In this document: piece after piece, positions 15,361 to 55,592 of the stretch
Layout: each line of letters starts with the position of its first letter
Numbering within the stretch: the stretch's first letter is position 1
Source of the DNA: Octopus vulgaris
Lineage: Eukaryota
Direction: 5' to 3'
Assembly (NCBI GenBank): GCA_951406725.2
Contig: OX597838.1
Coordinates: 8,432,001-8,496,000 of the forward strand
Length of the DNA: 64,000 bases
Made by a program: the position numbers and the translations under genes
Notes under the pieces: model-generated
Database searches by the model: none
What the model saw: only the letters and a program-made list of their open reading frames with translations
Told to the model about the DNA's origin: nothing

Positions 15361-15567
15361 ACGGGAAGGTTTACGAAAATAAACAAAAGACGAAGGCAGG
15401 TGGTGTACAGACAAACAAATGTGTTAGTATGGCGCTCAGGAATAGAAATAGAACAAGTCTTTTACGTTTCGAGCCTACGCTCTTCGACAGAAAGGGACAC
15501 AGAAAAAACAAGGAGAGAAACAAGGAGAGAAAAAATGCGTGTAGGAGCTAACGGTCCATCATGGTGA
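15361..15567 (-). mobile_element. Hammerhead-bearing short element in (TA)n, family H1, copy 1
   Basis: Minus strand 15459-15494: cttt-CTGTCGA-A-GAGC-gtag-GCTC-GAAA-CG-TA-aaag; homologous to 27389, 38996, 43890 and 55448. Confidence 0.8.
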
Positions 15568-15701
15568 TAGATATATATATATATATATATATATATATAT
15601 ATATATATATATATATACATGTGTATGGGGTGTGCAAGAATGAGTGTATATATATAGAAAAGGGAAGATATGAAAGCTTCTGACGATGCAGAAAGTTTTA
15701 C

Positions 15702-15849
15702 AAAACCCTTTCTATTTCAGGCGCAAAGGTTTATCCTCAGAAGGAAACAGTCTTGGAAATGTCCAGTCACACCGATTCCGTTACTGGACAACTCCGAGAT
15801 TGCTTCCTTCCGACGATGAACCTTGGCGCCGAAAATATAAAGGGTTTTA
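15702..15849. repeat. Imperfect ~69-bp-arm hairpin (foldback/MITE-like)
   Basis: 15702-15770 pairs with 15780-15849, ungapped, roughly 80% identity, 9-nt loop. Confidence 0.75.
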
Positions 15850-16263
15850 CTCTCTTTACTTGTTTCAGTCATTTCACTGCGGCCATGCTGGAGCGCCGCC
15901 TTTAGTCGAGCAAATCGAGCCCAGGACTTATTCTTTGTAAGCCTAGTACTTATTCTATCGGTCACTTTTGCAGAATCGCTAAGTTACAGATACGCAGACA
16001 CACCAGCATCGGCTGTCAAGCGATGTTGGGGGGACAAACACAGACACACAAGCACACACACACACACACATATATATATATATATATATATATATATATA
16101 TATATATATACGACGGGCTTCTTTCAGTTTCCGTCTACCAAATCCACTCACAAGGCTTTGGTTGGCCCGAGGTTATAGTAGAAAACACTTGCCCAAGGTG
16201 CCACGCAGTGGGACTGAACCCGGAACCGCGTGGTAGGAAGCAAACTTCTTACCACGCAGCCAC
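15846..16263 (-). mobile_element. SINE family A, near full length
   Basis: Reverse complement of the family A consensus seen at 48883-49339. Confidence 0.92.
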
Positions 16264-16994
16264 GCGAACCTAGCAGGATCGCAGCATCCCCTCCTCCTCT
16301 TCCTCCCATTACTTCGCCTTACAATGCGACACACGCCAAGCACAGCTAATAACAACATTAACAATAATTAGAAAGATTATGATAGGAGATAACGTAATTA
16401 AAGACGACGACCATGATGATGATGATGATGATGATGATGATGATGATGATGATGAGTGATGCGGAGGGGGAGGAGGAGGAGGAGGAGGAGAAAGAAGTAA
16501 AGGTTGATGGTGATTACAATATGATAAAAACAAGATAGAACTGTTAATGAGTATAAGCGAAAACAACAACAAATAAAAAAAAAGTGTGTGTGTGTGTGTG
16601 TGTATGTATATGCGTATATGTGAATGTATATGTGTATGTGTGTGTGTCTTTATGTATACGGTTACAAATGAGACGAAACAGCCAAACGGTGGAACGGAAA
16701 ACGAAAGTGAAAGTAGAAGAACGAGAAAAGTCACGTGTTTAAAGTGTAAGGGTCGTGATGGGATCGGGGTGGGTGGAGAGATCGGGGTGGAGAGGAGTGA
16801 GGAATCGGAGGAGCTGATGAAACGACAACAGATCTCTCACATTCCTTTGCAAAAATATGTGCCCTTAAGGGTCATTAAAATACACAGACAACACACTGTC
16901 TGCTCGATCAGGTTCCCACCATACAATGACATATTTTGAACTCCCAAAGGAATCGACTTTCTCCCGGTTTCCTGCTTATTCTCTAGATCTTTCT

Positions 16995-51728: not shown

Positions 51729-53095
51729 ATCATCATCATCATCATCATCATCATCATCATCATCATCATCATCATCATCATCATCATCATCATCTTCATC
51801 ATCATCATCATCATCATCATCATCATCATCATCATCATCATCTTCGTCATCGCCGTCGTCGTCATCGTCATCGTCATCATCATCATCATCATCATCATCA
51901 TCATCATCATCAACAACATCGTCATGATCGTCATCGTCATCATCATCATCATCGTCATCGTCATCATCATCATCATCATCAACATCATCTTCATCATCAT
52001 CATCATCATCATCATCATCATCATCATCATCAACAACATCGTCATCATCGTCATCATCATCATCATCATCATCATCCTCATCATCATCATCATCATCATT
52101 TTCCTGATGTGCAATGGGTTTACTACCTGTAACCATAGATATCCACATGATTCCAATGGTTATGGTGGTAGTGGTGGTAGTAGTAGTAGTAGTAATAGTT
52201 GTTGTTGTGGTAGTGGTGGTGTTGTGGTAGTGGTAGTGTTGTTAATTTTATCTAATGTTTAATTAAATTTCCTAAACTTTGTTAAAATACTCAGTTTCTG
52301 CTCCATTGACTGACACAGCAGTCAGCTTGGATAATTAGATTGTGTAGTATTGGTAGAGGTGGTAGTGGTGGTGGTGATGCGATGTGATGCGATGGTGCAG
52401 TATTACTCGTACTACTTGTAGTAGTAGTAGTAGTAGTAGTAGTAGTAGTGGTGGTGGTGGTGGTGGTAGTAGTAGTAGTAGTGATGGTAGTAGTTGTGGG
52501 TGGGATAGTGGTGGCGATGTGGTGGTGTGGTAGATATTGTAGTAGCAGTAGTAGTTGTGGTGGTGGTGGTGGTTTTGGTGCTGGTGGAGGTGGTGGTGGC
52601 GGTTGTGGTGGTAGTGGCGGCGATAGTATTGGCAGTTGTGGAAGTGTTAACGTGGCGGTAGTAGTGGTGTAGCGACATAGCGAGGAATTGGAAAAGTAGT
52701 GACGAAGAGGTGGTGGTATTGTAATGGTGGTAGTAGTAGTAGTAGTAGTAGTAGTAGTAGTAGTAGTAGTAGTAGTAGTAGTAGTAGTAGTAGTAGTAGT
52801 AGATGGTGGTGGTGGTGGTGGTGGTGGTGGTGGTGGTGGTGGTGGTGGTGGTGGTGGTGGTGGTGGTGGGTGTAGTAGTAGTAGTAGTGGTGGTGGTGGT
52901 GGTAGTAATAGTAGTTGTAGTAGTAGTAGTAGTAGTAGTAGACGTTGTTGTTGCTGTTGTAGTTACGTTGTCTTATTGCTGTTTGATTTTTGTCTTTGAT
53001 GGGTCCTGTTGTGGCTTCTTGTTATTTTGGTTATTACTGCTGCTGATGCTGATGCTGCTGATGTTGATGTTGATGTTTGTTGTTGCTGCTGCTGC
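51729..53095. repeat. (CAT)n, then (GGT/AGT)n and (GCT/GTT)n tracts
   Basis: Seen directly. Confidence 0.9.
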
Positions 53096-53849
53096 GAAAC
53101 GCTTTTTTCACTGCTCCTTCCTTCTTTCCCGCCATTTCCAGTCTTCCATAATTTAATAACAAATACCAATAACATTATATTAATGAAATTTCAATTATAC
53201 TTCTTTTTACAAAAAAAGCTCATTTTTAACCACTTACACACTCACATAAATAGGTATATATATATATATATATATATATATATATATATATATATATATA
53301 TATATATATATATATATATATATATATATATATATATATATATATATATATATATATATGTGTACGCATGTATATATAAAATATATATATATATATATAT
53401 ATATATTGTATATATATATATCTGTACGCATGTATGTGTATGCGTGTATACGCATGTATGTGTGCTTGTATGTATATGTATATATATACATATAGTTATG
53501 TATGTATGTATACACACACACTGAGTTTCTAAACCAGGCACAGACAGCGAGAAAACAAACTCAAACATACTAGTTCACGGTGATCATCGCACACTCACCG
53601 ATGGCTACAAACACGTATATACACTCATATGCAATCATTATGAAGTGTTTTCTTCAAAATGCCTCTTGCAAATGGTAGACATACTCTTCCTCAACAACAT
53701 ATTTTAAAACCGCTTAAGGTAATTCACTCTCTCCCTCCCTCATTCCTCAAAATGTCAGTACTCCTCCACATTTATGGTGAATGTTAGATAACCAACGCTA
53801 GTTTCCTCTGACGCTTATATATACATACATACATACATACATACATACA

Positions 53850-55435
53850 GAAGCGATTTCCTGTAGATTTACTGTAACATTCCTCGAAAACAATACATTA
53901 CTATTCAACGGAAAAACTAGCTCCAAATTCGAGGCACAGCTATGGGGTTGCGAATTACTCCAGTTTTCGCGAACTCAGTATTGGGATACTTGGAACAAGA
54001 CCAACTTTTAAAAATTGAAGAGAACTACAGTATCACCTTTAAAAGACATATAGAGGACACATGGAAAAGATACCTCGATGATTGTTTCCTTATTTGGACC
54101 AAATCCCTAGAAAATCTGGAAGAATACATCACCCTCCTTAACAATCTACACCCTGGTCTCAAATTCACAAGAGAAGTGAGCAACGGACCATTACCATTTC
54201 TTAAAATAATGGTAATTAAAAACACCACCACAATCACAACTGATATTTATTGCAAAAGCACAGATACACACCAGTACCTAAATTTCAAATCATGCCACCC
54301 AGCGCACACAGAACGCAACATCCCGTACTGTCTAGCCAGGAAAATTTGTACTATAGTAGAACATTCAAATACTAGAAACATGCGACTTATAAAACTCAAG
54401 GGATTTCTGCTCATGCAAAATTTTCCTCTCCTACTTATAGAAAATACAACGAGCAAGCGAGATGCCTATAGAACAGCTTAAGACGAACCCATCAACGGAA
54501 CATAATATCATTTCTAGTAACACACAATCCGCATCACCAAAACATTTCTAACATCATCAAAGCAAACTTGACAATCATAAAACAAAGTGAAAATTTTTTA
54601 AAAACATAACTAATCAAACACTTGTCTTAAGAGAAAGGCAACCACATAACCTAAAGAAACTATTAACAAAGGCAAAATTCATGAACAAACAGGATAAAAA
54701 CATTGACAGTATCCAAGTGGAATGATAACAGATGTGGAACGTGTCCAAACATGCAGACGGGTAGATCCGTTAGAACAAAAAATGGACAGATTTTTCTCAA
54801 ATGCAGATAAGAACTGCAAAAGCAGAAATTTGATCTACTGCATTAAATGCCCGAATTGCAAGGAATTATAGATAGGCGAGACAGGGAATGCATTATCGGA
54901 ATGCCAATGAGTCCACAGACAGCAAATCCAGAACACCAGTGTTTGCCAAATTCCACTGAGCAAACGTATAGGAACATGTGGTCAGAAAATGTTTCTAATT
55001 TTTCCTTTCCACAAACTACATGACACAAGTGAGGTTGGAAAAAAGATAAAAGAAAAACGGTTTATTAAAATATTCAGACCTGTTCTGAATGGAAATAATA
55101 GCAATAATATAACAACCAGTTAATGATGTGGATTAAAAGATAGAAACAAATTACAGAATATCAGTACGCCTGGCAAACAGTGATGTTTAAGGTGCATGCG
55201 GATTGGTCAAAAAGATATTAAAAAAATTTAGCTTATTGAAGCGTTCTAAGAGGTCCTAAATTTGTCAAGAACTCAACTGTCAGTTAAACACATTTGAAAT
55301 CTGATGATTACTACGAACGTATGAAAGCGCTAATTTAACTTTTTGGGCATTACTTAATATTTTTTTAATGCTAAAATACCATAATAAAAAACGTGAAAAC
55401 CACACCATGTTTTAACTTTATTCAAATGATATACA
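53850..55435 (+). mobile_element. 5'-truncated, disabled Penelope-like element (RT, Cys linker, GIY-YIG endonuclease, 3' UTR), probably Neptune-like
   Basis: LQIRGTAMG...FAN, WKRYLDDCFLIW, LPFLKIMV, TDIYCKSTDTHQYLNFKSCHP; RCGTC linker near 54730; NCKSRNLIYCIKCPNCKEL*IGETG from 54812; KEKRFIKIFRPVLN near the end; (ACAT)n and (AT)n flanks. Confidence 0.92.
55297..55336 (+). ncRNA. Minimal type I hammerhead ribozyme motif in the PLE 3' UTR
   Basis: aaat-CTGATGA-tTAC-tacgaac-GTAt-GAAA-GCGC-TA-attt; canonical core, palindromic stem III, first stem II pair is a U-U mismatch. Confidence 0.7.
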
Positions 55436-55447
55436 TATATATATATA

Positions 55448-55592
55448 TCTGTGTATCTTTCTGTTGAAGAGCGTAGGCTCGAAACGTTAAAGACTTGTTT
55501 TATTTATATTTCCTGAGCGCCATACTAATACAATTGTTTGTTTGTATTCCACCTGCCTTCGTCTTTTGTTTATTTTCATAAAGCTTCCCGTT
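55448..55592 (+). mobile_element. Hammerhead-bearing short element H1, copy 5
   Basis: 55456-55493: tcttt-CTGTTGA-A-GAGC-gtag-GCTC-GAAA-CG-TT-aaaga. Confidence 0.8.

Follow-up and report, generated by a model that had tools for sequence, protein, structure and literature searches.

A short repeat in TA microsatellites of Octopus vulgaris with the minimal hammerhead layout of Penelope-like elements and U at core position 6

The DNA analyzed here, referred to below as the window, is a stretch of 64,000 nucleotides (nt) of Octopus vulgaris (contig OX597838.1 of assembly GCA_951406725.2, positions 8,432,001 to 8,496,000). It is rich in microsatellites and carries five copies of a short non-coding repeat, each with a motif laid out like the hammerhead ribozymes of Penelope-like elements (PLEs), together with one diverged sister copy and the remains of a PLE gene (Table 1). 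A preliminary description of this DNA had listed five homologous inserts. Their places and strands are as claimed, except that the start of copy 2 moves to about 27384 and that of copy 5 to 55449. Pairwise identities among the five copies, which are alignable over their common 3' part, range from 80 to 92%. The profile of the five copies, searched against the window, recovers all of them (E 7e-60 to 8.5e-44) and one extra diverged match (58168-58085, minus strand, E 1.2e-6), with no others in the window. The five copies are one family, and we count them as one founding event rather than five.

Table 1. Copies of the repeat and PLE features of the window (N7 and H17, bases at core positions 7 and 17)
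Feature	Position	Strand	Motif	Details
Copy 1	15361..15567	-	15494-15459	C3=15490; U6=15487; N7=C; predicted cut after A17=15463; reference for the contig comparison
Copy 2	27384..27580	+	27451-27486	C3=27455; N7=A; H17=U; one G-U pair in stem II
Copy 3, 5'-shortened	38996..39147	-	39121-39086	C3=39117; N7=A; H17=A
Copy 4, longest	43890..44100	+	43972-44007	C3=43976; N7=C; H17=A; stem II with one mismatch and one U-G pair
Copy 5, 5'-shortened	55449..55592	+	55457-55492	C3=55461; N7=U; H17=U; in the TA tract bordering the broken PLE on its 3' side
Single diverged sister copy	58033..58250	-	58167-58133	Overall geometry as in the family
Broken, 5'-truncated PLE gene	53850..55100	+		Reverse transcriptase end, Cys-bearing linker, GIY-YIG endonuclease; stops and frameshifts; from homologue search and tblastn
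Minimal hammerhead-like motif of the window PLE	55297..55336	+	descriptor match 55301	CTGATGA core; stem III GCGC palindrome; U-U at the stem II base; 102 nt before TA tract

The motif reads CTTT-CTGTNGA-A-stem II-GAAA-CG-TH-AAAG in 5/5 copies, with the bases at positions 7 and 17 that had been claimed. Compared with the CUGANGA core, six of the seven positions fit and the five copies all have U at position 6; GAAA and UH, where H is not G, are likewise present in 5/5. Stems I and II, the G10.1-C11.1 pair, the extra base after A9 and the palindromic stem III all fit the PLE-type minimal hammerhead, and the motif agrees with the published consensus (CUGANGAH-G...C-GAAAN-palindrome-NUH) apart from position 6. 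Pairing holds in 91.5% of 59 stem cells over six motifs, the sister's included. The G-U-compatible change announced for stem II is found in copy 2. One copy was also said to have a broken stem II; this is copy 4, with a single mismatch, but its other altered pair is U-G. All five copies share the minimal type I hammerhead layout of PLEs, with A6 replaced by U.

Standard models do not name this motif: Rfam gave nothing at gathering level, and no hammerhead family for copy 1 up to E 10. A relaxed hammerhead descriptor (at most 2 core mismatches, score of at least 5) gave five matches in the window, namely copies 1, 2, 3 and 5 and the motif at 55301, and missed copy 4; 3/20 locally shuffled windows also gave matches, one apiece. 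Two matches to the CTGANGA...GAAA pattern, at 15740 and 45379, were rejected as they fail the stem descriptor. The degenerate motif pattern had no match in viral contigs and none in metagenome contigs.

Each insert had been placed inside a TA-type microsatellite. This is so for four of the five copies, which have (TA)n on both sides and both ends at most 10 nt from a run of at least 5 TA units, but copy 5 ends with TATA followed by (TACA)n. Of 200,000 random intervals of that size, 0.37% have TA runs that near to both ends. Position 17 lies at a nearly constant distance from the TA tract (102, 97, 94, 96 and 103 nt for the five copies, 104 nt for the sister, 102 nt for the gene-bearing PLE). 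The stretch before C3 measures 77-87 nt in three of the five copies and 87 nt in the sister, and this common 5' start suggests a defined unit of about 210 nt. None of the five copies is arranged in tandem in the window, and no end-to-start joint appears among the contig rows listed.

The fixity of U6 was judged from contigs of four runs placed on copy 1 at 80% likeness, with differences listed from 4%. The contigs numbered 18,119 for X1 (organism A), 7,425 for X8 (organism D), 6,459 for X11 (organism E) and 3,892 for X16 (organism A); none of the runs listed with the repeat is recorded as RNA, the RNA status of X16 is a guess and its contigs are not counted as evidence of expression. Depth is not read as copy number, and sequences unlike copy 1 are under-represented among the placed contigs. 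Position 7 (15486) shows all four bases in all four runs, with A 53, C 28, U 12 and G 6% in X1 and U 43, C 27, G 25 and A 5% in X11. At C3, U4, G5, U6, G8 and A9, at the extra A, G10.1, C11.1 and the first three stem II pairs, and at G12, A13, A14, A15.1 and U16.1, no variant reaches 4% in any of the four runs, and neither does G at position 17. The contrast between positions 6 and 7 is a firm result, because a single A at position 6 would be placed as readily as a change at position 7. U6 is thus a trait of the family, and position 7 is free, as had been proposed; the contigs of four runs under three organism labels support it.

Changes do occur elsewhere in the motif. The first base of loop II varies (23% in X1), C10.4 goes to U (6% in X1) with pairing kept as U-G, C15.2 goes to U (up to 7%) and A17 to C (11% in X11), while an outer stem I G to U change (8% in X1) breaks its pair. 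Depth in X11 is about 5 million on the motif against about 700 at 15414-15445, 20-50 nt downstream, and differing flanks are seen as loose ends; several subfamilies therefore share the motif and not the flanks. The copies belong to a very abundant non-coding repeat, probably of about 210 bases, with the PLE-type minimal hammerhead layout.

The sister departs from the family at other bases. Its core is CCGACGA, i.e. U4C with A6 kept, and G12 is changed to A; the outer stem I pair is swapped from C-G to G-C, the loop is changed and both stems are kept. The sister is known from one copy and U4C may be particular to it.

The protein of the window PLE is 57% identical over 178 amino acids to P0001, and its relatives carry PF00078 and PF01541; Pfam recognised none of the three broken PLE frames of the window. 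Most named relatives come from bivalves or from assemblies of their symbionts. The window PLE, traced to 55430, ends at the TA tract that contains copy 5, so that the tract lies between the two. That copy 5 could be the terminal repeat of this adjacent PLE was considered and rejected (longest match at most 14 nt, best E 0.53). Because the two show no sequence match and the TA tract intervenes, copy 5 is best read as a separate insertion in the tract. The window PLE nevertheless offers a candidate type of helper for the repeat.

We scanned 124 related PLE loci, allowing one core mismatch; genome contigs supplied 44 of them, many redundant, and metagenome contigs the other 80, out of 572. They yielded 17 distinct motifs. 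All 15 on the sense strand are CTGANGA/GAAA; the remaining two are antisense, one of them with U4C, and position 6 is unchanged in 17/17. The two antisense motifs (L069:2536 and L081:2059, both minus strand) have an identical stem II, with CCGATGA in one and CTGATGA in the other, U4C being here a copy-level difference in another family. The distance from the end of the protein match to the motif is 97-547 nt in 11 related loci. In L064 a TA run starts 124 nt after C3; such a run is found in only 3/11 of the loci checked, several contigs stopping shortly past the motif. The direct U6-core pattern had no match in the 124 loci. P0001 used alone found no related locus in genome contigs, and the search with the PLE alignment found none in viral contigs. 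Loci L001-L044 are animal-type PLE genes in contigs filed as bacterial assemblies (e.g. SUP05, Stappiaceae, Nitrospirales), probably host DNA in the bins.

Several known systems resemble the repeat in part. The minimal type I hammerheads dispersed in metazoan PLEs (Cervera & De la Pena 2014, PMC4209133) have, like our copies, a U-rich upstream flank, a stem I of 3-5 base pairs, an extra base between positions 9 and 10.1, the G10.1-C11.1 pair, a palindromic minimal stem III and many dispersed single copies. They differ in that A6 stands in every core of Figure S3 of that paper (56 motifs according to its legend), though the descriptor used there demanded A6; changes at positions 3 and 8 do appear in it. 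The Neptune PLEs described by Craig et al. (2021, PMC8557442) insert preferentially in (TA)n and have a hammerhead near their 3' end; their terminal repeats share both features with the repeat, and the window PLE has the Cys linker and the spacing of about 100 nt, whereas no copy of the repeat is attached to a gene. The anole Poseidon PLE (Frangieh et al. 2024, PMC11167929) also has its insertion end downstream of the hammerhead, an AT-rich target and a weak ribozyme, which is reported to cut only with its protein. Its reading frame starts within the hammerhead and its dependence on C3 and G8 was assayed, while our copies have no reading frame and are known from sequence. Natural core variants are on record, A6C in phage Bcep176 and U4C in a viroid (Perreault et al. 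2011, PMC3088659). These too change the CUGA turn and leave the rest of the core intact, but they are described as rare single cases, whereas A6U is here fixed in a family, over thousands of contigs and three organism labels.

We lean, if only slightly, towards the following account as a whole: a PLE-type repeat of about 210 bases with a U6 core, likely inserted in TA microsatellites by enzymes that a Neptune-type PLE encodes, and predicted to cut slowly, as a dimer or with the help of protein. The RNA of a master copy would be bound by a PLE reverse transcriptase/GIY-YIG protein. By analogy with the anole PLE, this protein would nick AT-rich DNA and the cDNA would begin about 100 nt downstream of the hammerhead. 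A cDNA start inside the RNA would fix the 3' end and sometimes leave the 5' end short. Selection among master copies would keep the fold, with C3-G8, G5, A9, G12, A13, A14 and A15.1-U16.1 intact, and the ACGU palindrome could pair between two molecules. U6 would damage the CUGA turn and hence lower cleavage; the element could spread despite it because single insertions would not require cleavage. Published work on other hammerheads disfavours efficient cleavage. Mutants of the CUGA turn have low activity, A6C is slow and the minimal PLE hammerheads are weak even with A6 (PMC4209133), which together argue for a slow cutter assisted by a partner molecule or a protein. A stronger form of this account, which we hold only tentatively and regard as doubtful, is that the repeat is a very abundant non-autonomous PLE derivative present in several related species, and that its hammerhead works with U6, at a position where according to mutagenesis no other base is tolerated, thanks to a PLE protein or partner RNA that shapes the catalytic turn.

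A number of observations weigh against the favoured account. Motif columns are only modestly more invariant among the five copies than those of the 3' flank (31/36 in the motif, 65/89 downstream), even if the core positions are invariant at 11/11. The core had been expected to be more conserved than its flanks; in the contigs it shows no variants around a free position 7, but the last 45 nt of the element (15358-15403) are also without variant rows and as invariant as the core. U-rich flanks, for their part, would diverge fast through slippage regardless. The A/U variation described at position 17 is real for the window, where U is present in 2/5 copies, but U17 does not appear among the variants listed from 4% upward for any of the four runs, a comparison biased to copy-1-like sequence. 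As for stem covariation among sister families, one of ten pairs is changed on both sides (the outer stem I C-G to G-C swap, in the sister copy alone), but 164/500 shuffles reach this value and the covariation is not significant. Folded in isolation, the motifs do not outperform their shuffles (z -0.77 to 1.5 over the five copies). U6 moreover lets positions 4-6 pair with the ACG of stem III in a small rival helix, lower than the hammerhead-like fold by 0.2 kcal/mol in copies 1 and 3 and by 2.4 in copy 5. The parent gene was not found: the family profile has no match in the 124 PLE loci. Thus the proposal of a high-copy PLE-type element in (TA)n stands as to layout, abundance (thousands of contigs) and TA residence, but lacks its parent PLE. 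The putative assignment of the window PLE to Neptune has the Cys linker as its sole basis, a character common to Nematis. Two sets of published data point the same way: the natural A6C variant has a kobs below 0.1 per min (PMC3088659), and in a type III hammerhead the single and double CUGA-turn mutants reported are all low, a second change giving no rescue except for the C3-G8 swap (PMC9901934). Folding of whole copies and of motifs otherwise supports neither side. A co-folded pair of motifs gives a duplex other than the double hammerhead; the folding model cannot score the core.

The main rival on origin, which we think rather unlikely as a replacement for the defined-unit reading, is that the copies are 5'-truncated terminal repeats of a gene-bearing autonomous PLE located elsewhere; it could hold whether or not the motif cuts. 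Animal genomes have minimal hammerheads mostly as single motifs, which are attributed to truncated PLEs (PMC4209133). Our copies have at most 87 nt upstream, against a gene-to-motif gap of 97-547 nt in the 11 related loci, so that a gene would be out of reach. Depth also declines toward the 5' end, an effect confounded with edge effects. But starts 77-87 nt before C3 in three of the five copies and the sister suggest a defined boundary, and none of the 24 loose ends listed (480 more exist) has coding-like sequence.

On activity the main rival supposes a dead core: A6U would derive from the founder, and the fold would be kept as a protein-binding or processing signal, or by recent shared ancestry. 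We judge this unlikely, although it draws on several of the points above, the weakness of CUGA-turn mutants and their lack of rescue among them (PMC9901934). PLE insertion in vitro proceeds with cleavage dispensable (PMC11167929), Naiad PLEs spread without canonical hammerheads (PMC8557442), the sister alters the same turn at another base (U4C), and U6 is able to pair with stem III. What speaks for a working core is that G8, G12, C3 and the avoidance of G17 hold across subfamilies that differ in their flanks and at position 7, which fits continued selection on catalytic geometry, and that natural A6C and U4C variants retain low but detectable activity (PMC3088659).

Retrozymes provide a further, quite improbable, reading, in which the copies are dispersed units of a tandem non-LTR retrozyme spreading via small circular RNAs. 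Animal non-LTR retrozymes (PMC7229834; Li et al. 2026, 10.64898/2026.07.22.740005) are, like the repeat, short, non-coding, PLE-related and equipped with a type I hammerhead; the unit of about 210 nt resembles coral retrozymes (220-240 bp), and retrozyme families have monomer fractions anywhere from 0 to 1. They are however defined by tandem arrays and circular RNA, whereas the five copies include no tandem pair and the rows listed no end-to-start joint, the copy ends are not at the cut site, and the motif is of the minimal PLE type rather than the canonical type described for retrozymes. Chance resemblance of an unrelated short repeat is barely credible: it could appeal to the empty Rfam search, the core mismatch, the short stems and a family that is one founder event, but at no other site do the contigs show all four bases as they do at position 7, the sister retains both stems while its loop changes and one pair swaps, and the spacing to the TA tract agrees with that of the window PLE's own motif.

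Hammerheads in PLE ends, dispersal of solo copies and TA targets are known already; what appears new is the family-fixed A6U core variant. We did not find such a variant in the literature searched, to which Lunse et al. 2017 (on small PLE hammerhead variants, and which may list variants of position 6) and Repbase/Dfam did not belong. None of the matches listed for CUGU-core spellings in the hammerhead literature concerned a natural core variant by its title, and the one match for a hammerhead A6U, which concerns twister, was set aside. The octopus and cephalopod literature retrieved on hammerheads and Penelope contained no description of the family.

The role of PLE hammerheads is an open question, since they are poor cutters and one is dispensable for insertion in vitro. 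A successful family with a damaging core change, a free position 7 and kept catalytic guanines is a natural test case. Cleavage by the motif would mean that the hammerhead consensus and all counts based on descriptors are drawn too tightly and have overlooked a great many genomic copies; a motif that does not cut would have its fold maintained for some non-catalytic function. Should the hammerhead work with U6 through a PLE protein or partner RNA, this family and the sister lineage altering U4 would reflect natural selection for a ribozyme active only inside the protein-RNA complex of a retroelement.

Other repeats of the window deserve brief mention. On the minus strand, 25569-26681 covers the terminal part of a reverse transcriptase frame of LINE type, which has a zf-RVT domain (Pfam E 3.5e-8) and breaks off at an (AGAT)n tract. 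On the plus strand, a 161-amino-acid frame at 12456-12941 without Pfam match presumably resembles the C-terminal restriction-like endonuclease of a non-LTR retrotransposon. Close by, at 13052-13471, a 232-bp unit is present in 1.8 head-to-tail copies, which we take to resemble a SINE-type repeat. Finally, a tandem array with a unit of about 40 bp (9.6 copies, 65% matches) occupies 22380-22869 and is also scored at period 227.

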